A model generated the notes under the pieces. The model did no database searches. It was not told the DNA's origin and saw nothing but the letters and a program-made list of their open reading frames with translations. This document shows, piece by piece, positions 19,900 to 64,000 of a stretch of 64,000 bases of DNA (its first letter is position 1; every line of letters starts with the position of its first letter). The DNA lies in sequence record PZ445451.1; one strand, 5' to 3'. A program made the position numbers and the translations under genes. This DNA comes from a phage.

Positions 19900-20712
19900 T
19901 TATTTAGTCAAATGATCTTCTATCATTTTTATGAAAGCAGGATTGCTAAAAGCATCTGCGGCCTTTTCTCGATAAACAAAAACTCCTCTATCTTCGTAAA
20001 GAAGAGTTTCTTCGTAATTAATTCCTGGGTTAACAACAATCATTTTTGTACCCATACTAAGTGCAGGGAATAATTCCCAATTAAAATTGATAACTTGGTT
20101 TGAACATCCTACTACAACAACCAAATCTTGCATGGTCAAAGTATCAAACAAGTGAGCCATATCTGCATACAAAGGTGCAGCCTCACCAAAAAATACAACA
20201 TTAGGCTTCACCCAGTTGTAATCATCTATGTTTATACTGTTGTAACCAATATCTACCAGTGTTTTGTAGTCCCCAGGATGCATACGGTAAACTACTTCAG
20301 GAAGATATCCGTGCACGTGGATAACAGAATCCCTGTCTACACCTGCTCGCTCTAGTAGATCATCAACGTTTGTTGTCAAGTTTACTACTTGGTTAGGATA
20401 TTCCTTAAACCACTTTGCTATTTGAATATGTGCAGCATTAGGTTGTACATCTTTAAGCTCAACACGTCTTTTGTTATAAAATTCGTGTGTTTTGGCATAC
20501 AAATCCATACCGTTTTCGTCTACACCACCAACCACTGGAAGATCTGGTGATGTTCTCACACGATAACCTGCTTGGAAAGCTCCAATATCGCAGATCTCTT
20601 CTAAATCCCATTCTTCCCATAGGGCACGACCACTATCTGTGTCTGTTCGGAATGTTCGAATCCCACTGTCTGCACTTAAACCAGCTCCACTAACAAAAAT
20701 TACTCTTCGCAT
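19900..20712 (-). CDS. Sir2-family protein (sirtuin-like NAD+-dependent deacylase / ADP-ribosyltransferase / NADase), no zinc ribbon
   Basis: GAGLSADSGIRTFR matches the sirtuin GAGIS..SGIP.FR NAD-binding motif; TNVDDLLERAG and VIHVHG match the catalytic region; no C-x2-C pairs. Confidence 0.75.
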   Translation of the reverse strand: MRRVIFVSGAGLSADSGIRTFRTDTDSGRALWEEWDLEEICDIGAFQAGYRVRTSPDLPVVGGVDENGMDLYAKTHEFYNKRRVELKDVQPNAAHIQIAKWFKEYPNQVVNLTTNVDDLLERAGVDRDSVIHVHGYLPEVVYRMHPGDYKTLVDIGYNSINIDDYNWVKPNVVFFGEAAPLYADMAHLFDTLTMQDLVVVVGCSNQVINFNWELFPALSMGTKMIVVNPGINYEETLLYEDRGVFVYREKAADAFSNPAFIKMIEDHLTK

Positions 20713-51257: not shown

Positions 51258-51662
51258 TTATTGTAGCTTAAGTGAACTGCGAAGACGTTTCTCTTGCTGA
51301 TCACGAATATGTTGTGGAACCTCATGAATTGAGTCGTTACCGTGCCTATTTTCAACAACTAAAGAGATAACTTGATAACCAAACTCTTCAGCAAGAGTTA
51401 AATAAGGTTTAAGTTCTTTCTCTGTGGTTGAAGTGTTAGAGACAATAATCTTTTTAGTATTAGATGCCATAGCATCACGAACAATACTCTGACACCATGC
51501 GTGTGCTTTACCTACATTCTCTGGCTTCCAATCGTAAACACCACTTTCTGTGTAATGATATTGATCTGCCTCACAGATAGGCCAATAACCTTCAGAAATA
51601 ATTTCTGCTACTGTAGATTTACCTGCACCTGAAACACCACGTAAAATGATAAGTTGTTTCAT
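51258..51662 (-). CDS. polynucleotide 5'-kinase (T4 Pnk kinase-domain-like P-loop protein)
   Basis: MKQLIILRGVSGAGKSTVAEII resembles the T4 Pnkp N-terminus ([23 protein letters not shown]); IIVSNT matches the downstream motif. Confidence 0.65.
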   Translation of the reverse strand: MKQLIILRGVSGAGKSTVAEIISEGYWPICEADQYHYTESGVYDWKPENVGKAHAWCQSIVRDAMASNTKKIIVSNTSTTEKELKPYLTLAEEFGYQVISLVVENRHGNDSIHEVPQHIRDQQEKRLRSSLKLQ

Positions 51663-52595
51663 TTAGCCTCCAAAGAAGTTTTCTATTTCTTTACGTCGCT
51701 CTTGTGGATCTAGAGCAGCCCATTGAACCTTCGTAAAGTTATTTCGAAGCCATTCTAGCAAAGTATAATATTCTTCGTCAACAATTTGTTTAGCATTGTT
51801 TGGGTTGTCCCAAATCATATCCCACTTCTTATTGCCACCACGCATAAGGAACTTCTTAGCAAGATAGTATGGTGACTTAATCTTTAAGAGTAAGTTAAAC
51901 GGATAGTTTGTTTCACGAACAACAAAGCCTTCGTGTCTACAATGTTTAGACATTTCAACAACATCTGAAAATTTAATCATCGGATAAACTTCAGGACGTT
52001 TAAATTTTGTAATAGATGCAATCCCATCAAGAACACCTTCAGGTAACATGAAACTTGTCCCATCAAGATTTTGAATTCTTGCTCCAATTAAGTATGCACC
52101 TGGTTCTTCTTCGACAATATGTGGATCAGAAGGATCACAGATTTCAAAAAGAAAAGTTGCTTTTGCACTTTCTGTCCACTTAATGAAATACTCTATGTCG
52201 TCACACTCGGAAACAATACGGTTCTTTGCCATAATTGCAAAATCTGATTCTAGGCTCCCTGTTGTTGATACAACAAGTTGCCCTTTGTACACACCTACAG
52301 ATGCCATAAAACCGTTTACTTTACGGACAGCATCTACAAGTTCGTCTGCTGGAAGATCTGTACCATTCTCAAAACGATTAAAGATTTTAGTAAAAGGCCA
52401 AATAACAACATTGTCTTCTGAGTCAACAACCAACCCACGGCAATCTAGAAGTCGTTTGTCAACGTTCCACAAATTATCCCAGAATACATTGTTTTTGTAT
52501 TTAAGTACAGCAAGACCAGCATACTCTCCAGATTTAACTTCTTTTTTATGCACTAAACCTTTTGCAATCAGGTCATCACAATTGAACTTAGCCAC
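51663..52595 (-). CDS. RNA ligase (T4 Rnl1-like nucleotidyltransferase)
   Basis: LLDCRGLVV ... PFTKIFNRFEN parallels T4 Rnl1 LECRGIMF ... PMEKFFNLNEN; lysine motif KVNG; stop/start contiguous with the kinase gene. Confidence 0.6.
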   Translation of the reverse strand: MAKFNCDDLIAKGLVHKKEVKSGEYAGLAVLKYKNNVFWDNLWNVDKRLLDCRGLVVDSEDNVVIWPFTKIFNRFENGTDLPADELVDAVRKVNGFMASVGVYKGQLVVSTTGSLESDFAIMAKNRIVSECDDIEYFIKWTESAKATFLFEICDPSDPHIVEEEPGAYLIGARIQNLDGTSFMLPEGVLDGIASITKFKRPEVYPMIKFSDVVEMSKHCRHEGFVVRETNYPFNLLLKIKSPYYLAKKFLMRGGNKKWDMIWDNPNNAKQIVDEEYYTLLEWLRNNFTKVQWAALDPQERRKEIENFFGG

Positions 52596-52596
52596 C

Positions 52597-53148
52597 TTAA
52601 TCTCCTTTGATTATCTTATGATGGTCTACAACAACAATATCACGCTTATCCATAATAGAGATGATTTCGTCAAAATGCAAGATTTTTCCGTGTGCATCCC
52701 AACCAACATCCAACATCTTCCCATACAAATGATCAGGGAATGATCCGTGAGAGTGTCCGTGTAGCATGATTGATCCATGCCCTTGTTTATTCCAGGCAGC
52801 CATAGGGTAATGGCTTAAGACGAAAAACAGCTTCTGATATTTCACTTCGTCATAATAAACCACTTCTCCATACTCTGCAAGCACTTTTCTGTGTTTACTG
52901 TAATCATGGTTCCCAACACAGTAAGTAATATTCCCTTGGAGACGGGAAGCAATCTTACGGGTATCTTCTTCAGTCCCGAAACAGAAGTCCCCAAGATGGT
53001 ACATCTTTACTCCTGGTGTTGTGGCACATTTATTCCATGCTTCGATCAGTGCTTCTGTCATATGCTCCATATTTTCCCACGGGCGATATTCAGGAGCAAA
53101 TTCTCGGATACGTTTGTGCATAAAATGCAAATCACTTGTAATAAACAT
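52597..53148 (-). CDS. calcineurin-like metallophosphoesterase (candidate RNA 3'-phosphatase / 2',3'-cyclic phosphodiesterase)
   Basis: DLHF, GDFCFG and GNHDY metallophosphatase motifs; stop/start contiguous with the RNA ligase gene. Confidence 0.7.
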   Translation of the reverse strand: MFITSDLHFMHKRIREFAPEYRPWENMEHMTEALIEAWNKCATTPGVKMYHLGDFCFGTEEDTRKIASRLQGNITYCVGNHDYSKHRKVLAEYGEVVYYDEVKYQKLFFVLSHYPMAAWNKQGHGSIMLHGHSHGSFPDHLYGKMLDVGWDAHGKILHFDEIISIMDKRDIVVVDHHKIIKGD

Positions 53149-53507
53149 TAGTATAATCCCTCGCTGAATAGTTCACTATCGTGACCATTTCTTTCATAAT
53201 TAATTTGTTTGGCGTTATCTGCAATGATATAAGCATCTTTGCGACTCCACCAGTTATAATACTGATCAATAAACCCTTGATTATCAGGTAAGCAAAACAG
53301 TTTATCAATCAATCCTGCATCTTTTAAAACATTAAGTTGTGCAGATAGTACAGGATTTGCATGCCTAACACAAGGAATAATTAACTCTTCGCCATTGTTG
53401 AGCATATACTTATTCGCAGCGCAGACTATAACACGTTGAGCATAGTGATCCTCACCAATCCAAGTAAGAGGTTGGTAACAAATATCATGTTGATTAGTAG
53501 CGCACAT
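53148..53507 (-). CDS. hypothetical protein (119 aa)
   Basis: Track ORF 53148-53510 (TTG) trimmed to the adjacent ATG. Confidence 0.55.
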   Translation of the reverse strand: MCATNQHDICYQPLTWIGEDHYAQRVIVCAANKYMLNNGEELIIPCVRHANPVLSAQLNVLKDAGLIDKLFCLPDNQGFIDQYYNWWSRKDAYIIADNAKQINYERNGHDSELFSEGLY

Positions 53508-53653
53508 CAATTTTCTTCATACTCTTCGTCTGTATGTATATCGTAAAAGCAATCTTCAAAAGTTGCAAGTGCTTTTTCTACATCGGGCCAATGGTTAGTG
53601 TGTTTGTATATATAAAACCCATCCCCTTCATCTACCCAAATAACATAAAGCAT
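53507..53653 (-). CDS. small acidic protein (48 aa), not in track
   Basis: ATG at 53653 (minus) after GGAGGTG RBS; stop overlaps the next start (TGATG). Confidence 0.4.
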   Translation of the reverse strand: MLYVIWVDEGDGFYIYKHTNHWPDVEKALATFEDCFYDIHTDEEYEEN

Positions 53654-53662
53654 AACACCTCC

Positions 53663-54037
53663 TTAATAGTTAACACGTTTAATTTCAACACCATAGGATG
53701 AAATAAAATTTTCCTTAGCTAACATATATTTACCAGCAGCAGAAGGGTTTGATGTATGGACATAGATAGTTTTAAGAGCATCCCATTCACCCGCATACAA
53801 CATACATTCTACGTCTAAGAATGCATGATATCCTTCCTGATCTTCTCCAAGATCATTATCGAAGTGTATCTCTGAGATATTATTGAAATTATCTTCATCT
53901 GAAACAAAAGATAACCAATCCTCAAAAGATTTTAACCAAATGGCATCCTCATAACCATAATCTTTAGGATCTCTTAAATCGTCTAACCAAAGAATTTTAG
54001 CCACTATCAACCCCCTTCCTGTTTCTCTTCTTTCCAA
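53663..54037 (-). CDS. hypothetical protein (124 aa)
   Basis: Track ORF. Confidence 0.55.
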   Translation of the reverse strand: MERRETGRGLIVAKILWLDDLRDPKDYGYEDAIWLKSFEDWLSFVSDEDNFNNISEIHFDNDLGEDQEGYHAFLDVECMLYAGEWDALKTIYVHTSNPSAAGKYMLAKENFISSYGVEIKRVNY

Positions 54038-55261: not shown

Positions 55262-55630
55262 CTAATTAACGTCAGCACTATGATTGTTGAGAGTATAGGA
55301 TACTCCATCGCCCAAGTCAACATGAATCTCAACTCCTAACTGTCTTTCTAATGGTAAACGTTTTGAGAATTGATAATTACAAAGTTTACAATCTAAGTCA
55401 AGCAACTCATGTTTGCTTAAGCCTGGAATGATAACTTTGCTTCCCACTGTCCACTCAATACCTTCAAAGTTATCTCTTCTTTTCAAAATGTCAAGTAAGA
55501 AGATGATTTGTTGCCATTCCGTAGACAAGTCTTCTTCATAGAACGCAGAACAAAAAGTTTTATCATCGTAGAAAGCATACATTATGCCTCCATCTATTGT
55601 TTCACTTCTAACGTACCGTGTGACCCTCAT
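55262..55630 (-). CDS. hypothetical protein (122 aa); first gene of the minus-strand block
   Basis: Track ORF; GGAGGGAATAATG RBS. Confidence 0.6.
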   Translation of the reverse strand: MRVTRYVRSETIDGGIMYAFYDDKTFCSAFYEEDLSTEWQQIIFLLDILKRRDNFEGIEWTVGSKVIIPGLSKHELLDLDCKLCNYQFSKRLPLERQLGVEIHVDLGDGVSYTLNNHSADVN

Positions 55631-56040
55631 TATTCCCTCCTATACGGCTCTGTAACGAGCTAATGGCCTTTAAGATATGCAATCACCTTACCTCACAGTA
55701 AAACTCGTTACAATCGTTTTTAGGAGGTTCAGGTTGTACTTAAAAATAATCCAAAAAGGTGTTGACAAACGCAAAAAAGTATGCTACCCTAACCCCCGAA
55801 AAACGCCGAGCGCAGCGAGTGGGGTGTTATCTAATCTTGTGATACATGATCTAACAGACAACTGAGTAGTCTACATATAGCACTATGTTATGTCTCTAAT
55901 ACTAACACACATACTCTATACTAACAATAGATTCTTTATTAATTTTATTATTAATTAAATAATAAATATCTATTGACTTTAGATCTATCTGTAGGTAGAG
56001 TAGAGAACATAAAGTCCTAACTCAACTAAGGAGATAAAGA

Positions 56041-56934
56041 ATGAAAGTTAGTATTCTACATGGTGTTGATTGCTATGTTACTGATGTAGACGTTAAAGTG
56101 TTTACATTCTCTGGTGGAGAACAACATGTTCAATTAGATACGAATCTATCAGGTTTCAATCATGCTACAGACAGAATCTTACTCTCTTTAGAAGTAAGAT
56201 CTGCTAAAGACTTGATGACTTTGGTTATGACTAAGAATGCATTGGACAATATGCTATATCATAAACCATATTGTGTTGATTTGCTCATGTTGTATGTGCC
56301 ATATGCACGACAAGACAGAGTGTGTGAACCTGGGGAAGCATTCGGAGTTAAAGCATTTGCTTCTATAATTAATTCATTAAATTTCTCACGTGTTATAGTT
56401 GCTGATCCACATAGTGATGTTACTCCAGCAGTGTTTGACAGACTCTGTGTAATACCTCAAGAAGAGATTGCTTACGAAACTTTAAAGTGGAAGTTACGTA
56501 TGGAGAATTTTGCTCTTGTTAGTCCTGATGGTGGTGCTCTTAAGAAAATATTTAAATTATCTAAGAAAATGTCTTTAGATGTGTTCTGTGCAGAGAAGGT
56601 TAGAGATACTGCAACAGGTGCTATTGTTCGTACAGACATTTCTGTACAGGATTTCAATAAGCGTAACCTAATGATCGTAGATGATATCTGTGACGGCGGT
56701 AGAACTTTTATTGAATTGGCTAAAGTGCTACGTGCTCGTAACGCAGGTAAGATTGAGTTATATGTTACACACGGTATCTTTTCTAAAGGTCTTAAAGAGT
56801 TAAGTGAGCACTTTGACTGCATTCATTCTCTTAATGTGTGGGAAGATAACATCCAAGAAGATTCCGGTGTTCTTGTTAAGAATCAGTCGGATTTGCAACA
56901 ACAAATTGTATCTCCATACGTGTGGAATTTTTAA
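56041..56934 (+). CDS. ribose-phosphate pyrophosphokinase family protein (PRPP synthetase or Adps-type ADP-ribose pyrophosphate synthetase)
   Basis: YVPYARQDR, VSPDGG and MIVDDICDGGRT match the Prs ribose-5-P loop and PRPP-binding motif. Confidence 0.85.
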   Translation: MKVSILHGVDCYVTDVDVKVFTFSGGEQHVQLDTNLSGFNHATDRILLSLEVRSAKDLMTLVMTKNALDNMLYHKPYCVDLLMLYVPYARQDRVCEPGEAFGVKAFASIINSLNFSRVIVADPHSDVTPAVFDRLCVIPQEEIAYETLKWKLRMENFALVSPDGGALKKIFKLSKKMSLDVFCAEKVRDTATGAIVRTDISVQDFNKRNLMIVDDICDGGRTFIELAKVLRARNAGKIELYVTHGIFSKGLKELSEHFDCIHSLNVWEDNIQEDSGVLVKNQSDLQQQIVSPYVWNF

Positions 56935-57005
56935 ATAATACGTGTTGACAATAGGGAGTATGCTTAGTAAGATACTCCCACACTAACAAACAAGGAGACA
57001 TAACT

Positions 57006-58739
57006 ATGAATATTTTTGCACCTTTTGCTACTGATTGGTATAAACCTGGTCACAAGCAGATGTACAACCAAAATACAAAACTCATTTTCTCTAACTTAAC
57101 TCCTCGTAATGATAAAAACTTTGCAAACTACGCAGAACGTGAAGCACGTGGTGTAATTGTTTTAGGTATTCGTCGAGCAGTTACTGATGCTCTTGTAACT
57201 ATGTGGGATAGCTTCTTTAAAATGTCTCGTAGTGCAGCAGTAAATAAGTTTTATCGTATGTCTAAAAATGCATTAGGTGCTTCTGCTCCTTCTGCTGAAT
57301 GTTGGGGAGAATTGCACGATTTAGGTTATCTTCCGCTGGAAGTTCGATCTCTGCCAGAAGGTGTTTTGTGTCCTATTGGTGTTCCTGTGTTTACTGTGCA
57401 TAATACTTTAGAAAAATTCTTTTGGTTAACTAACTATGTGGAAACACTATTGTCAGATGAAACTTGGAAGACAATGACTAATGCTACAGCAGCTTTTCAG
57501 TATAAGCGTATTGCTATGGCATATGCGATGGCAACGTGTGATAATATTGATCACGTTAACTTCCAGTGTCATGATTTTAGCCTACGTGGTTTAAGTAATA
57601 TCGAAGATGGTTATAAGAGTGGTATCGCTCATTTGGCATCTTTCACAGGAACAGATAACATTCTGGCTATTGAGACTGTGCATGATTATTATGGTATTGA
57701 TTATGATCAGTTTGTTGCAGGTTCTATTCCGGCAACAGAACATTCAGTAGCAACGACTAACATTGGAGCTATTGTTGAAGATCTGAAGAAACATTTCCCA
57801 CATCTTAAAGATGATGTTGATGGGCTTCGTTATGTAGCAGAGAAAGAGTTTCTTCGCCGCTATATTGAAGAAATTGTTCCAGAAGGTTTTTGTTCATATG
57901 TAGCAGATTCTTATGATTACTGGGCTGTCTTGACTCGCATTCTGGTAGAATTGAAAGAATCCATTATGTCACGAAATGGTCGTCTTGTTATTCGTCCAGA
58001 TTCAGGAGATCCGGTTAAAGTTGTTGCAGGATACAATGTTGAATCTTTTGCTAACTATGAAGACCTTTTAAATAATGGTATTGCTACAGCCACTGAAGTA
58101 GTTCATTTGGTTGATGTTAATAAATATTACAATGTTCTTCAGGATTGCAGTGTTGCTGATTGTATTGATGAAACTTATGAGATTCCTTATTGTGAAGCAG
58201 TAGGTTCTATTCAAATCCTTTGGGAAGTGTTTGGTGGTACTATCAACCGAAAAGGCTACAAGGTTCTTGATCAGCACATCGGTATGATTTATGGTGATTC
58301 TATTACTGTTGAACGAGAACACGAGATCTTACGCCGACTGAAGAAGAAAGGTTTTGCAGCTTCCAATATTGTATTTGGTGTTGGTAGTTATACTTATCAG
58401 TTCAATACACGAGATACTTTTGGTTTTGCTGTTAAAGCAACAGGTAGTATCATCGGTGAACACGAAATTTTGGTAAGTAAGGAGCCTAAAACTGATCCTG
58501 GTAAACGATCTGCAAAAGGTTTTATTAAGGTTGTTAAGGATACAAATGGTAAACTTTCTCTTGTGGATAATCTTTCTTTTAAAGATATCCAAGATGAAGA
58601 CAATGAGTTAAAAGTTATCTTCAGGGATGGTACGGTTATTACACCACAAGTAGAAGGACGTGATGAAACATTTACTGATATCCGTAACCGTGTTGATGTA
58701 GAGGTTCTTCGTACTATGGGAACCATCCAGGTTGACTAA
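57006..58739 (+). CDS. nicotinamide phosphoribosyltransferase family protein (NadV/NAMPT or Namat-type)
   Basis: TDWYKPGH, PEGVLCPIGVPVFTVHNT, FWLTNYVETLL, HDFSLRGLSN and FTGTDNILA align with conserved NAMPT blocks. Confidence 0.85.
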   Translation: MNIFAPFATDWYKPGHKQMYNQNTKLIFSNLTPRNDKNFANYAEREARGVIVLGIRRAVTDALVTMWDSFFKMSRSAAVNKFYRMSKNALGASAPSAECWGELHDLGYLPLEVRSLPEGVLCPIGVPVFTVHNTLEKFFWLTNYVETLLSDETWKTMTNATAAFQYKRIAMAYAMATCDNIDHVNFQCHDFSLRGLSNIEDGYKSGIAHLASFTGTDNILAIETVHDYYGIDYDQFVAGSIPATEHSVATTNIGAIVEDLKKHFPHLKDDVDGLRYVAEKEFLRRYIEEIVPEGFCSYVADSYDYWAVLTRILVELKESIMSRNGRLVIRPDSGDPVKVVAGYNVESFANYEDLLNNGIATATEVVHLVDVNKYYNVLQDCSVADCIDETYEIPYCEAVGSIQILWEVFGGTINRKGYKVLDQHIGMIYGDSITVEREHEILRRLKKKGFAASNIVFGVGSYTYQFNTRDTFGFAVKATGSIIGEHEILVSKEPKTDPGKRSAKGFIKVVKDTNGKLSLVDNLSFKDIQDEDNELKVIFRDGTVITPQVEGRDETFTDIRNRVDVEVLRTMGTIQVD

Positions 58740-58810
58740 ATAAAAACTTCGTGATAAGATTAAGGTAAGGAGAGCCTGCAACTGCCCTGGATGGGCTTCA
58801 CGAAGGATTT

Positions 58811-59032
58811 ATGAAACAACATAATTTTTATTTTCGTTGCCGAGCCTGTAACAGACACTTGACTAATCACTCCCGTAGAGACAGGAATGGTAATATTCAA
58901 GAGTCGGATCTATGCTCAATTTGTACAAGTTTGGCATTCGACGACAGTCCCGAAAGGGTTTATCAACATCAAAGTGTAACTGATCTTCTTCTAAATTACA
59001 CAGCACCAGAGGAGGAATTAGATTTCACATAA
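58811..59032 (+). CDS. small zinc-ribbon protein (73 aa)
   Basis: Track ORF; CRAC ... CSIC Cys pairs. Confidence 0.5.
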   Translation: MKQHNFYFRCRACNRHLTNHSRRDRNGNIQESDLCSICTSLAFDDSPERVYQHQSVTDLLLNYTAPEEELDFT

Positions 59033-59211: not shown

Positions 59212-59478
59212 ATGACAGAAAAGACTTATGGTAAAGAATTGATTGAGAAGCACGTATTGATTGATAATAAAGGTGGAGCAATCTTTATTTTTGAACCTGA
59301 ATCAGTTCTTACTGAAAACGAAAATGGTAGCGTTAGCCTTAAAACAGAAAGTTTGGTAATTGACTTCCTTGCTCTTCTGGATGAAATGGGGCTTCCTCAC
59401 GAAGAAGAAGCAGCTATTGCTTTGATTGCAGTTCTTCTGGAGAAACGCGAAGCTGGTGAAATGACCCAGTATGCTTAA
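59212..59478 (+). CDS. hypothetical acidic protein (88 aa)
   Basis: Track ORF; AAAGGAGAAAAC RBS; promoter-like TTGACA at 59153. Confidence 0.6.
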   Translation: MTEKTYGKELIEKHVLIDNKGGAIFIFEPESVLTENENGSVSLKTESLVIDFLALLDEMGLPHEEEAAIALIAVLLEKREAGEMTQYA

Positions 59479-59860: not shown

Positions 59861-59942
59861 CGGGGTGTATCTCACCTGACTTCTAATCAGGCGTTAACCG
59901 AGTAATTGGAGTATGCAGGTTCGAATCCTGTCACCCCGGCCA
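59861..59942 (+). tRNA. tRNA-Arg(TCT)-like RNA lacking a D-arm
   Basis: 7 bp acceptor, canonical anticodon arm CCTGA-CTTCTAA-TCAGG, canonical T-arm GCAGG-TTCGAAT-CCTGT, CCA encoded; only 7 nt between acceptor and anticodon stem and a 23-nt insert before the T-arm; TTGACA promoter at 59820. Confidence 0.45.
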
Positions 59943-60005
59943 AAAAGTTTTAAAAACTGCTTGACAAGCAAGATAGTTTTATGTTAGATTTAAAGTATGA
60001 TAACT

Positions 60006-60095
60006 GGAAGGTAGGGCGCAGCGGTGCGCAACCAGGTTTGAACCCTGGCCCATTGTAGCGATACGGTGATGGTTCGACTCCATTATCTTCCTCCA
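60006..60095 (+). tRNA. tRNA-Ser (anticodon TGA), type II
   Basis: Acceptor GGAAGGT, 3 bp D-stem, anticodon arm CCAGG-TTTGAAC-CCTGG, 19-nt variable arm, T-arm GATGG-TTCGACT-CCATT, CCA encoded. Confidence 0.7.
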
Positions 60096-60101
60096 AATTC
60101 A

Positions 60102-60266
60102 ATGAGTGATTTTATGAATTATAAAACTATTGGACAGGTTGTTACCGGAGTTAAGATTGTAAATAATAAAGTTGTTTATGAGTATTCTAATCTTCAACAA
60201 TCTGAAGATGGTAAGAATATTCGTATGGTAAAAGCAGAACAAAAAGATTCCGGTTGTTTTGAATAA
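60102..60266 (+). CDS. small protein embedded in the tRNA cluster (54 aa)
   Basis: Track ORF 60066-60266 trimmed to the first ATG beyond tRNA-Ser; weak RBS. Confidence 0.35.
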   Translation: MSDFMNYKTIGQVVTGVKIVNNKVVYEYSNLQQSEDGKNIRMVKAEQKDSGCFE

Positions 60267-60274
60267 TTAAGAAC

Positions 60275-60360
60275 GGTAGATTGGTGAAATGGTAGCCACA
60301 ACAGTTTGCTAAACTGTCGTCGGAAACGGCGTGTAGGTTCAAGTCCTACATCTACCGCCA
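60275..60360 (+). tRNA. tRNA-Ser (anticodon GCT), type II
   Basis: Acceptor GGTAGAT/ATCTACC, anticodon arm ACAGT-TTGCTAA-ACTGT, 15-nt variable arm, T-arm GTAGG-TTCAAGT-CCTAC, G73, CCA. Confidence 0.75.
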
Positions 60361-60495
60361 AGTTATCTTTAATGTAGCTTGTAATCTTACTTTAGCAGAG
60401 TAAATCTTCGGCAAGTGGCGGTAACCACTTTACCGATACCCCAATACTTCATAGCTAAGTGCCGCAAACACTGGCTATTTTAAAGATAATTTTAT

Positions 60496-60570
60496 ACATC
60501 GTTAGCCAAGCGGTAAGGCACTTGACTTTTAATCAAGGGAGCGAAGGTTCGAATCCTTCACGATGTACCA
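60496..60570 (+). tRNA. tRNA-Lys (anticodon TTT)
   Basis: Acceptor ACATCGT/ACGATGT, anticodon arm CTTGA-CTTTTAA-TCAAG, T-arm GAAGG-TTCGAAT-CCTTC, CCA. Confidence 0.7.
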
Positions 60571-60575
60571 AACAC

Positions 60576-60662
60576 GTAGGTATCGCATAGCGGCAATTGC
60601 TGGAGACTGTAAATCTCCTGCCCTTCGGGGCTTCGTTGGTTCGAGTCCAACTACCTGCACCA
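60576..60662 (+). tRNA. tRNA-Tyr (anticodon GTA), type II
   Basis: Acceptor GTAGGTA/TACCTGC, anticodon arm GGAGA-CTGTAAA-TCTCC, 16-nt variable arm, T-arm GTTGG-TTCGAGT-CCAAC, A73, CCA. Confidence 0.75.
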
Positions 60663-63325: not shown

Positions 63326-63757
63326 ATGATGATACTGACTATGTTAATAAACCTACTGAAGAATAAATGGGTTAGGTATTTTGTTCTTATTATAGCACTG
63401 TTTGGTGGTTTGTATGTTGGTTTAAACAAATTACACGATGACGTGTATGCACAAGGCTACAACGCAGGTATTGCTAAACAAGAACAAATATTACAACAAA
63501 ACCAAATTAAAGCAAAACAGCAATTCGATATCTTACAAGCAAAAGCAGATTCAGAAAGATCTAAATTGAATGAAAAAATTCATTCATTAACGAAACAAAG
63601 AAATGATCTTCTTACACAACTGGATAAGAAGAGTAATAACATAACACAAGAGAGAATAGATTATGCGAAAACATCTTCTGGCGCTATGTCTTGTTTTAGC
63701 CCTAATGATGACGGGTTGCGCATCATCAACAACAGCTTCCCAGCCTCTATTGATTGA
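63326..63757 (+). CDS. i-spanin-like protein (Rz-like: N-terminal TM helix plus coiled-coil periplasmic domain)
   Basis: Hydrophobic WVRYFVLIIALFGGLYVGL followed by Gln/Lys-rich coiled coil; start codon uncertain. Confidence 0.45.
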   Translation: MMILTMLINLLKNKWVRYFVLIIALFGGLYVGLNKLHDDVYAQGYNAGIAKQEQILQQNQIKAKQQFDILQAKADSERSKLNEKIHSLTKQRNDLLTQLDKKSNNITQERIDYAKTSSGAMSCFSPNDDGLRIINNSFPASID

Positions 63758-63992
63758 GCAGTGTAAAGCTGTAGCAACACAACAAATAAAAGCCCCTGAT
63801 TCTGTCAGTATGGAAAAACCATCTACCCCTGTTTTATATACTCCCAATCAAATAAAGAAAGGGGTTACAAGATCAGAGGTAGTGGATAATCAAACTTTAA
63901 ACAACGCTTTGTGGGAAAAAGATAGGATAAAACTTATCAGTTTACAAAACTATATTAAAACATTACAAAGTGAAGGAATAATTTCTAATTAG
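63663..63992 (+). CDS. o-spanin-like outer-membrane lipoprotein (Rz1-like), start embedded in the i-spanin gene in another frame
   Basis: MRKHLLALCLVLALMMTGC signal peptide with lipobox L-M-M-T-G-C. Confidence 0.5.
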   Translation: MRKHLLALCLVLALMMTGCASSTTASQPLLIEQCKAVATQQIKAPDSVSMEKPSTPVLYTPNQIKKGVTRSEVVDNQTLNNALWEKDRIKLISLQNYIKTLQSEGIISN

Positions 63993-64000
63993 GAGGAGAT

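Follow-up and report, generated by a model that had tools for sequence, protein, structure and literature searches.

A predicted NARP1 module for NAD+ reconstitution in Escherichia phage PaulScherrer (Bas60)

With the NARP1 pathway, phages can overcome an entire group of NAD+-depleting defences (type I Thoeris, DSR1/2, SIR2-HerA and SEFIR, and probably more), and they do so by repairing the damage rather than by blocking the sensor. It was discovered in genes 79-80 of phage Bas63 (JohannRWettstein), and a Namat gene is the neighbour of 97% of Adps-clade genes, so that adjacent Adps and Namat genes are the defining architecture of the system (Osterman et al. 2024). Both NARP1 reactions have been demonstrated with the enzymes of SPbetaL1 and DyoEdafos, and the anti-defence phenotype with Bas63, FADO and the operon of SPbetaL1.

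Here we describe a pair of genes of this type in Escherichia phage PaulScherrer (Bas60, MZ501100.1; genus Justusliebigvirus, host E. coli), located in a stretch of 64,000 nucleotides that we refer to as the window. Comparison of the sequences makes it very probable that the pair is a NARP1 module. [quoted passage not shown] The cofactor would be rebuilt without an NMN intermediate or an NMN adenylyltransferase (NMNAT), and the phage might then replicate despite NAD+-depleting abortive-infection systems.

The find is not new, because the NARP1 discovery paper already lists both exact proteins. In Osterman et al. 2024, bas60_0254 is an Adps homologue (Table S1) and bas60_0255 is marked as an ‘Adps-associated’ Namat (Table S2), and the phi92-type Adps rows of Table S1 read ‘Yes’ for Namat within 10 genes. 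The Bas60 pair is already known as a typical, catalogued member of a published system, and it offers no new principle. Apart from these tables, our search of the literature found no published link of Bas60 to NARP1, no test of Bas60 against an NADase defence, and no biochemical or genetic test of the pair in any phi92-like phage; Bas60 appears there for its NADAR protein and as a phage on which CBASS was tested. The relevance of the pair is a practical one. An intact NARP1 copy in this widely used BASEL model, and across the phi92-like genus, would aid the reading of host-range and defence-screen data, and its carriage would matter when therapeutic phages are chosen.

Gene layout and local signals

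The features of the locus are as follows.

55631-56040, plus strand: divergent intergenic region upstream of the pair (sequence reading and promoter scan)
About 55930-55970: AT-rich stretch upstream of adps (sequence reading)
55973-56001, plus strand: predicted sigma-70-like site TTGACT-17-TAGAGT upstream of adps (promoter scan, 9 of 12 matches)
56028-56033, plus strand: adps Shine-Dalgarno AAGGAG, 7 nt 5' of the ATG
56041-56934, plus strand: predicted adps, Prs superfamily, 297 aa, ATG start (ORF; bas60_0254, QXV83989.1)
56945-56973, plus strand: promoter-like TTGACA-17-TAAGAT within the adps-namat gap (motif scan)
56992-56997, plus strand: namat Shine-Dalgarno AAGGAG, 8 nt 5' of the ATG
57006-58739, plus strand: predicted namat, NAMPT family, 577 aa, ATG start (ORF; bas60_0255, QXV83990.1)
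58732-58760, plus strand: promoter-like TTGACT-17-TAAGAT overlapping the namat stop codon (motif scan)

The two adjacent plus-strand genes that the initial annotation described are both present, separated by 71 bp on the same strand and each preceded by a strong Shine-Dalgarno sequence. At the local base composition, the chance per start that a frame stays open is approximately 1.5e-9 for 297 codons or more and approximately 7e-18 for 577 or more. The pair begins just past a strand switch: 55630 is the end of the last minus-strand ORF, beyond which lie 410 bp of intergenic DNA, and the GC skew (2-kb) changes sign at about 56000, from -0.206 to +0.142, in agreement with the earlier description of the genes as set apart from the minus-strand block. 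In 56 phi92-like genomes the pair is conserved with a nucleotide identity of at least 95%.

Pfam searches of the flanking ORFs at 58811-59032, 59212-59478 and 55262-55630, and of five further ORFs upstream, found no Macro domain, and in all, nine ORFs flanking the pair showed neither a Macro nor a RyR domain in Pfam. The sole strong Pfam match among these nine was a cREC_REC domain (53663-54037), which is part of neighbouring RNA-repair genes. PADLOC returned nothing meaningful for the pair.

The site at 55973-56001 is a prediction only, because promoter-like sites overall in the region are not above chance (18 compared with 13.7 +/- 3.6). Terminator-like sites in the region also occur at the chance level (2 compared with 2.1), and the terminator scan found no plus-strand intrinsic terminator after namat. 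The motif TTGACW-N17/18-TAAGAT occurs five times in the window against 0.10 expected, a count reached in none of 100 shuffles, and three of the five sites fall in the plus-strand block of the pair (56945, 58732 and 59153). The site at 58732-58760 probably belongs to the small gene that follows at 58811-59032, and probably marks the 3' limit of the module.

Relationships of the two proteins

The first translation contains the Prs-like motifs YVPYARQDR, VSPDGG and MIVDDICDGGRT, and the second contains the NAMPT-like motifs TDWYKPGH, PEGVLCPIGVPVFTVHNT and HDFSLRGLSN, all as originally reported; the assignments to Prs-like and NAMPT-like families hold in Pfam, NCBIfam and PHROG. For bas60_0254 the matches are to Pfam Pribosyltran and Pribosyl_synth, TIGR01251 (2.2e-34) and PHROG 619 (5e-91), with scores that exceed the cut-off for PF00156 and PF14572 but not for PF13793. 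These matches of both proteins to classical families, together with the classical names used in the GenBank annotation, favour a reading in which a PRPP synthetase and NadV make NMN, which host NadR or PncC/NadD would convert to NAD+. We consider such classical salvage very unlikely. The first protein does pass the cut-off of the broad TIGR01251 subfamily, just (118.8 bits against 113), but this is the only one that it passes; it misses every Prs equivalog or PRK cut-off widely, with 99.6 against 297 for PRK01259, 98 against 296 for PRK00934, and lower scores for the others. It scores instead like the four validated Adps proteins, which are those of Bas63, SPbetaL1, DyoEdafos and ICP1. On TIGR01251 these reach 82-138 bits and E. 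coli Prs 423, and on PRK01259 they reach 61-101 bits and E. coli Prs 532. Furthermore, SPbetaL1 Adps gave no product from the classical substrate (Osterman et al. 2024).

Direct comparison with the validated enzymes points in the same direction. An HMM built from the four validated Adps, with the Bas60 protein left out, gave the latter 205 bits and E. coli Prs 108. Leave-one-out models gave the Bas60 protein 166-215 bits, above the held-out Adps in every model; such small profiles separate Adps and Prs imperfectly, because one of them scored E. coli Prs (96.5 bits) above the distant DyoEdafos Adps (88.6). In a search of 5.8 billion proteins, the nearest 120 relatives were without exception short Adps-like proteins, with 209-669 bits, and a chromosomal relative from Geminocystis sits directly upstream of a NAMPT-family gene. 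In a neighbour-joining tree with one canonical Prs as its only outgroup, the Bas60 protein nests among the four validated Adps, and it has in common with all four the motifs [DE]PHS and K-x-R-[DN]-x-x-T-G. A complete phylogeny is given by Osterman et al. 2024, in whose table the Bas60 protein appears. Its K186 aligns with SPbetaL1 K162 (equivalent to B. subtilis Prs K197), mutation of which inactivates Adps (Osterman et al. 2024), and R90, D92, R93 and H124 are conserved. Identity to the validated enzymes is moderate, at 29-40% (35% for Bas63 Adps, E 7e-43). We found no structural definition of Adps, and comparison of folds cannot separate Adps from Prs because the PDB entries are Prs relatives only. 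Taken together, the sequence comparisons support placing bas60_0254 in the Adps subfamily, apart from canonical Prs.

The second protein, bas60_0255, matches Pfam NAPRTase (1.7e-37), NCBIfam PRK09198 (4e-138) and PHROG 448 (1e-187), and resembles validated Namat more than Nampt. Against the crystal structures of SPbetaL1 Namat (9W5X/9W5W) it reaches 397 bits, compared with approximately 170 against human and rodent Nampt, and it scores 560 bits on a Namat HMM compared with 204 on a Nampt HMM. Its tblastn matches in phages are bimodal, with 35-52% identity in NARP1 phages and 25-29% in T4-like and jumbo phages. Identity to the validated enzymes is again moderate (38-40%; Bas63 Namat 40%, E 3e-137).

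The SCH motif, the published Namat-specific clamp that binds adenine, reads GSYTYQFNTRD in bas60_0255 (G460-D470). Nampt-type phage proteins have GGGLLQ(Q/E)x(D/T)RD at this position. Among the 120 nearest relatives, 118 carry the SCH motif and none carries GGGLLQ. The catalytic core is conserved in full, as D10, Y12, F191, R194, D217, H246, R330, D332, G430, D431, G460, S461 and R469, by reference to D13, Y15, F189, R192, D215, the catalytic His, R306, D308, G360, D361, G390, S391 and R399 of SPbetaL1 Namat. All contacts to NAM, ribose and phosphate are likewise kept, including R330 (equivalent to R306) and H246. Two lineage-specific insertions lie at approximately residues 253-282 and 343-399.

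The variable SCL loop (approximately residues 35-48) of the Bas60 protein is unlike both characterized types. According to the published rule, Arg, Lys or Tyr occupies the third position of this loop, and stacking on adenine falls to the fourth residue when the third is Lys or Tyr. The residues that follow TPR in Bas60 are N-D-K-N-F, so that K37 fits the rule at the third position; the fourth residue, N38, is not aromatic, compared with Trp in Bas63. The fifth residue, F39, is aromatic in all 120 relatives and in Bas63, and on this pattern it is a candidate for the SCL stacking residue.

The adenine-binding clamp, which Nampt lacks, also argues against classical salvage, as does the observation that Bas63, with homologous genes, overcame SIR2-HerA in a host without pncC and nadR (Osterman et al. 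2024). In favour of that reading, Namat enzymes keep PRPP-dependent synthesis of NMN in vitro, and by analogy some classical activity of this kind may be present in the Bas60 protein. The preference for NARP1 over Prs with NadV in the initial annotation is upheld, as the profiles, the Namat motif, the catalytic residues and the tables of Osterman et al. 2024 all agree, and the check that it had suggested, of profiles against Adps/Namat and bona fide Prs/NadV, favoured NARP1 for both proteins.

A NARP2-type system, in which the second protein would be a Nampt working with a phage NMNAT and the Prs-like protein would supply PRPP, is extremely improbable. The NAMPT-family match is consistent with it, and NAMPT homologues are also found in NARP2 phages. 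However, the 204 bits on the Nampt HMM compare with 864-980 bits for the three Nampt-type source proteins of that model, the GGGLLQ motif is absent, and the table of Osterman et al. 2024 labels the protein Adps-associated. As had been noted for the window, no NMNAT is visible: none is annotated in the 150-kb genome, and E. coli NadD and NadR as tblastn queries gave only noise (best E = 1.2), in a search of modest sensitivity whose positive control was uninformative because the three Nampt-type control loci contained no NMNAT gene.

Both Bas60 proteins match PHROG 12872, over adjacent parts of the profile, which hints that fused Adps-Namat relatives may exist. Separately, an 867-aa protein (P0218), whose length had suggested such a fusion, was rejected since it has no Adps part; it is a Namat split between RPD and SGDP by an intein-like insert of approximately 290 aa.

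NAD+ and ADP-ribose genes elsewhere in the phage

Several other genes of Bas60 relate to NAD+ or ADP-ribose. A Sir2-family protein is encoded in the window at 19900-20712 (PF02146, E 2.8e-22; phrog_2162), with the GAGxS, N, D and H motifs of CobB kept, and the phage also encodes a NADAR protein. Outside the window, approximately 83 kb from the pair, lies the gene for a Macro protein, bas60_0070 (59888-60622 of the record). Residues 93-242 of this protein have 41% identity (E 8e-37) to the validated Adpp of phage Gary, an ADPR-1''-phosphate phosphatase, and 46% identity to a NARP1-linked Macro protein of Pseudomonas phage GEC_MRC. It carries a 92-aa N-terminal extension, is clustered with a ComF-like PRTase and a HAD hydrolase, and also resembles DarG (50 bits). 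It is not among the NARP1-associated Macro proteins listed in the Osterman et al. 2026 preprint.

The presence of Sir2-family, Macro-domain and NADAR proteins is relevant to a further reading, which accepts NARP1 chemistry and assigns it mainly to housekeeping, with the pair recycling the ADP-ribose and nicotinamide that NAD+ consumers of the phage itself (for example Sir2) or host turnover set free. Chromosomal Adps-Namat pairs in bacteria adjoin the NAD regulator NrtR, which suggests a metabolic role there. Against this, in Bas63 the pathway intermediates were seen only with a defence system present, and the operon deletion showed a phenotype on cells with a defence system (Osterman et al. 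2024); in Bas60 the sir2 gene is 36 kb from the pair and on the opposite strand. Housekeeping as the main role is very unlikely in our view, and an anti-defence NARP1 module remains the preferred reading.

That the module is one arm of a dispersed NAD+/ADP-ribose toolkit, rather than a stand-alone pair, is a tentative idea that we think is probably wrong, and yet it holds the only possibly new angle here, namely the combination of an unlinked Adpp-like Macro gene with a phage Sir2. Judged from its similarity to Adpp, bas60_0070 could dephosphorylate ADPR-1''-phosphate and so feed NARP1 in trans. If true, this would give phi92-like phages aRES resistance of the NARP1-AP type, and operon screens limited to two genes around NARP1 would miss the unlinked Adpp. 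It could also convert O-acyl-ADPR from the phage Sir2 into ADPR, closing a phage-encoded NAD+ cycle. These considerations suggest that operon-based counts may underestimate the phages with an extended NARP1 pathway.

Comparison with known systems

Compared with E. coli Prs (class I), bas60_0254 keeps the fold, the RxDR motif, the His of D-x-H, the catalytic Lys and the DD of the PRTase loop. It differs in length (297 aa compared with 315 aa), has 26% identity, and reads DPHS for DLHA, K-V-R-D-x-x-T-G for K-R-R-P-R-A-N, and DDICDGGRT for DDMIDTGGT. The NARP2 system of Vibrio phage KVP40 (the NadV Nampt with NatV, a bifunctional NMNAT/Nudix protein) also rebuilds NAD+ via a NAMPT-family enzyme; the KVP40 type has GGGLLQ, uses PRPP and needs NMNAT, none of which applies to the Bas60 pair.

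Extended forms of NARP1 have the same two core enzymes with additions. In NARP1-AP of Vibrio phage Gary (Osterman et al. 2026 preprint), Adps and Namat are accompanied by the Macro phosphatase Adpp, whereas in Bas60 no Macro gene lies in the pair or within two genes of it. In the combination of NARP1 with RyDEP, the DyoEdafos locus reads Adps-RyR-Namat, and the pair in Bas60 is without RyR.

The Bacillus phage SPbetaL1, from which both Adps and Namat have been purified, shares the catalytic core and the SCH adenine clamp, and its Adps K162 and Namat R306 have equivalents in Bas60. The Adps proteins of the two phages are 30% identical and the Namat proteins 38%. The SPbetaL1 Namat is shorter, at 491 aa, and has neither insertion; its SCL has six residues fewer and stacks by Arg40, where Bas60 has K37, and its Adps loop reads DDLSSFGGT.

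Bas60 and Bas63 belong to different phage families (Bas60 to Justusliebigvirus and Bas63 to Felixounavirus), and the proteins have only 35% (Adps) and 40% (Namat) identity. Position 4 of the SCL is Asn in Bas60 and Trp, which is said to stack on adenine, in Bas63. The second Namat insertion is shorter in Bas60, with a spacing from RPDSG to GxIYGD of 96 residues compared with 127, and Bas60 has a promoter-like element between the two genes. In both phages, which infect E. coli and belong to the BASEL collection, Adps is followed by Namat on one strand after a short gap, and the Namat is of the ‘long’ type, which has two insertions that are absent from SPbetaL1. The SCH motifs match, with GSYTYQFNTRD in Bas60 and GSYTYQYMTRD in Bas63, positions 3 and 5 of the SCL are Lys and Phe in each, and the R5P-loop variant DDICDGGRT is identical.

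The gene pair and its setting

Two adjacent plus-strand genes in Escherichia phage PaulScherrer (Bas60, MZ501100.1) resemble those of NARP1, a pathway in which the enzymes Adps and Namat rebuild NAD+. The open reading frames are present exactly where the initial annotation placed them, all of the peptide motifs that it quoted are found in the two translations, and both proteins have strong family matches. At the composition of the window, open frames of this length would arise by chance with probabilities of ~1e-9 (297 aa) and ~1e-17 (577 aa).

Features of the adps-namat locus
55973-56001, predicted sigma-70-like promoter TTGACT-17-TAGAGT, in the 410-bp intergenic region before adps, which contains an AT-rich tract
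7 nt upstream of the adps ATG, AAGGAG
56041-56934, plus strand, adps (bas60_0254, 297 aa), annotated 'putative phosphoribosylpyrophosphate synthetase'
56945-56973, TTGACA-17-TAAGAT, within the 71-bp gap between adps and namat
56992-56997, second copy of AAGGAG, within the same gap
57006-58739, plus strand, namat (bas60_0255, 577 aa), annotated 'nicotinamide phosphoribosyltransferase'

After ~36 kb of minus-strand genes, the final ORF of which ends at 55630, the pair begins a block of plus-strand genes, and GC skew (2-kb) switches sign at ~56000. In the window there are five copies of TTGACW-N17/18-TAAGAT (2064, 35173 on the minus strand, 56945, 58732, and 59153) compared with 0.10 expected, and at least five copies were seen in 0 of 100 shuffles; the count of generic promoter-like sites was not higher than chance. 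Three of these copies precede consecutive genes of the plus block, namely namat, a 73-aa ORF (58811), and an 88-aa ORF (59212), so the plus-block genes may each be under their own predicted promoter. A search for a plus-strand terminator after namat found none, and three small ORFs of unassigned function and a block of ~16 tRNA genes lie 3' of it.

The ORF directly 3' of namat, bas60_0256 (58811-59032, plus strand, 73 aa), has CxxC...CxxC spacing and a weak match to the RecR zinc finger (E 0.004); it is a member of phrog_37033 and is conserved along with the pair. Just upstream of the adps-namat pair, on the opposite strand, is an RNA-repair cluster (bas60_0242-0247, 51258-54037, minus strand). 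Its products are a P-loop protein resembling polynucleotide kinase, an RNA ligase of the T4 Rnl1 type (PF09511), a calcineurin-like phosphoesterase, and a protein with the 'cyclic-phosphate processing receiver' domain cREC_REC (PF20274, E 3e-14). Polynucleotide kinase or RNA ligase genes also adjoin the NARP1 loci of DyoEdafos and GEC_MRC.

Bas60 is a phi92-like phage (Stephanstirmvirinae, Justusliebigvirus). Window positions are obtained by subtracting 87100 from those of MZ501100.1; record 142900-146000 is 100% identical to window 55800-58900, and one base only, at window 48652, separates the two sequences. The final 675 bases (63326-64000) correspond to record positions 1-675, and thus the window continues past the end of the linear record into its start. 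The pair is kept at an identity of at least 95% in 56 phi92-like genomes. Four Campylobacter-labelled records were also matched in a nucleotide search of the pair. The Adps protein of Campylobacter phage A145 (MG065645.1, labelled as a Campylobacter jejuni phage) is 98.7% identical to that of Bas60, and Campylobacter phage D# (MG065647.1) is another record with a Campylobacter label; these host labels may be wrong.

Distinguishing Adps and Namat from Prs and Nampt

The alternative to NARP1 is a classical Prs with NadV. A PDB search with the first protein gave matches to Prs only (at most 58 bits) and, as there is no solved Adps structure, calibrated profiles were used to tell Adps from Prs. 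The references were the Adps proteins of Bas63, SPbetaL1, DyoEdafos, and ICP1, validated in vivo or in vitro. With the NCBI Prs model TIGR01251, E. coli Prs scores 423 bits, the four references 82-138, and the window protein 119; with PRK01259, also an NCBI Prs model, the values are 532, 61-101, and 100. An Adps HMM made from the four references, with the window protein left out, gave 205 bits for the window protein versus 108 for E. coli Prs, and the four leave-one-out versions gave the window protein 166-215 bits. In a neighbour-joining tree rooted on E. coli Prs it is nested within the bracket of the validated Adps, and its best 120 relatives among 5.8 billion proteins searched are all Adps-like (256-320 aa, 209-669 bits).

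Residues R90, D92, R93, H124, and K186 are all present, the last being equivalent to K162 of SPbetaL1, mutation of which kills Adps (Osterman et al. 2024). Two features set the window protein and the validated Adps apart from E. coli Prs: K-x-R-[DN]-x-x-T-G, and DPHS in place of the DLHA of Prs; the ribose-phosphate loop is DDICDGGRT in the window protein and DDMIDTGGT in Prs. These states, drawn from small alignments here and not a published signature, occur in 103-113 of the best 120 relatives.

One of those relatives is encoded on the chromosome of Geminocystis sp. NIES-3708 (AP014815.1 2482102-2490932), in an operon whose genes encode, in order, an Adps-like protein (276 aa), a NAMPT-family protein (492 aa), and a NUDIX + WHD_NrtR regulator. 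The first two form a NARP1-like pair of bacterial origin, as opposed to a housekeeping Prs. In such bacteria, genes named 'prs-nadV' within NrtR regulons may in fact be Adps-Namat pairs controlled by an ADP-ribose-responsive repressor.

Namat combines a Nampt-like catalytic core with an adenine 'selectivity clamp' (PMC12774641), of which SCH and SCL are two parts. The top PDB matches of the second protein are SPbetaL1 Namat (9W5X and 9W5W, 397 bits), with human and rodent Nampt at ~170, and its identity with the Namat of Bas63 is 40% (E 3e-137). It scores 560 bits with a Namat HMM, for which three Nampt-type phage proteins reach 241-261; with a Nampt HMM it scores 204, within the range of validated Namats (179-278), the 864-980 bits of the three Nampt-type proteins being self-scores because that HMM was built from them. 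The profile comparisons proposed in the initial annotation come down on the side of Adps (205 versus 108) and of Namat (560 versus 204). Matches by tblastn in 50,697 phage records are bimodal, with NARP1-type phages at 35-52% identity and T4-like or jumbo phages at 25-29%.

All catalytic-core residues are kept, including R330 (= R306) and catalytic His246. The SCH is GSYTYQFNTRD, where Nampt-type proteins have GGGLLQ, and among the nearest 120 relatives the Namat-type motif is found in 118 and the Nampt-type in none. The SCL fits in part. After TPR it reads N-D-K-N-F: the third residue, Lys, agrees with the published rule (PMC12774641), the fourth, Asn, is non-aromatic, and the fifth, F39, is aromatic in 120/120 relatives and in Bas63. 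Two insertions, at residues ~253-282 and ~343-399, account for the 86 aa by which the protein exceeds SPbetaL1 Namat, and both are present throughout a 'long Namat' subclade; this includes Bas63 Namat, which is active in vivo, and so the insertions are compatible with function.

A metagenomic Namat homologue, P0218 (867 aa), has an insert of ~290 aa with Cys as its first residue, between RPD and SGDP of the conserved active site; judged by its sequence, it looks like an intein. The annotated inteins in PaulScherrer are in DNA polymerase and a UvrD-like helicase.

No NMNAT is present among the 282 annotated genome features and none was found by tblastn with NadD and NadR, a search of limited sensitivity, in agreement with the earlier observation that none is visible in the window. 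The ORFs flanking the pair contain neither a Macro domain (Adpp of NARP1-AP) nor the RyR domain of RyDEP, and together these absences indicate a plain two-gene NARP1.

Proposed pathway and prior cataloguing

Profile scores, together with catalytic and SCH clamp residues, support the NARP1 reading of the pair. The layout of the genes, the subfamilies to which they belong, the intact state of catalytic and SCH clamp residues, and the conservation of the pair are direct observations here, and the two genes very probably make up a working NARP1. By homology, Adps would convert ADPR and ATP to ADPR-PP, and Namat would form NAD+ by coupling this with nicotinamide. Together they would be expected to counter SIR2-HerA, DSR1/2, type I Thoeris, and SEFIR. 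Namat may also produce some NMN from host PRPP.

NARP1 was first found in Bas63, another BASEL phage (Osterman et al. 2024). The supplementary tables of that study list MZ501100_00239 under Prs/Adps and MZ501100_00240 as an 'Adps-associated' Namat, which places the pair among the 859 NARP1 phages already counted. Thirty rows share the C-terminus of the window Adps, and at least two of them have 'Yes' for Namat within 10 genes. In the literature, we found no paper tying Bas60 or phi92 to NARP1 and no test of either against NAD+-depleting defence.

Accessory genes and comparison with NARP1-AP

Other genes of the phage are linked to NAD+ or ADP-ribose. The Sir2-family protein bas60_0185 (window 19900-20712, minus strand; PF02146, E 2.8e-22; phrog_2162, 346 bits) has the E. 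coli CobB motifs GAGxS, QPNxAH, N-x-D, and catalytic His (68 bits to 1S5P), lacks cysteines at the site of the CobB zinc ribbon, and gave no match in PADLOC. It would be an NAD+-consuming enzyme within a phage that also rebuilds NAD+. Outside the window, bas60_0111 (MZ501100.1 82014-82565) is a NADAR protein (PF08719, E 3.5e-36); named NADAR-Bas60, it has been proposed as anti-DarT, among orphan antitoxin-like anti-DarTG1 factors (PMC11257639).

Also outside the window, three overlapping genes (bas60_0070-0072, MZ501100.1 59888-62103, minus strand) encode a HAD hydrolase, a ComF-like PRTase (PF15610, E 3e-41), and a Macro protein. Residues 93-242 of the latter are 41% identical over the full domain (E 8e-37) to Adpp of Vibrio phage Gary, a validated ADPR-1''P phosphatase (Osterman et al. 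2026 preprint). The domain is 46% identical to the product of the Macro gene 3' of Namat in Pseudomonas phage GEC_MRC, has a weaker likeness to PADLOC DarG (50 bits), and has homologues in 2973 phage records (tblastn). The protein is missing from the NARP1-associated Macro list of the aRES preprint.

The pair itself is a known, already catalogued NARP1, and the modest new angle lies in these dispersed accessory genes. In NARP1-AP the Macro phosphatase Adpp is part of the NARP1 operon, whereas the flanking ORFs in Bas60 are without it; with an Adpp-like Macro gene elsewhere in the genome, NARP1-AP capacity in trans is conceivable and, on this domain likeness, a possibility for phi92-like phages.
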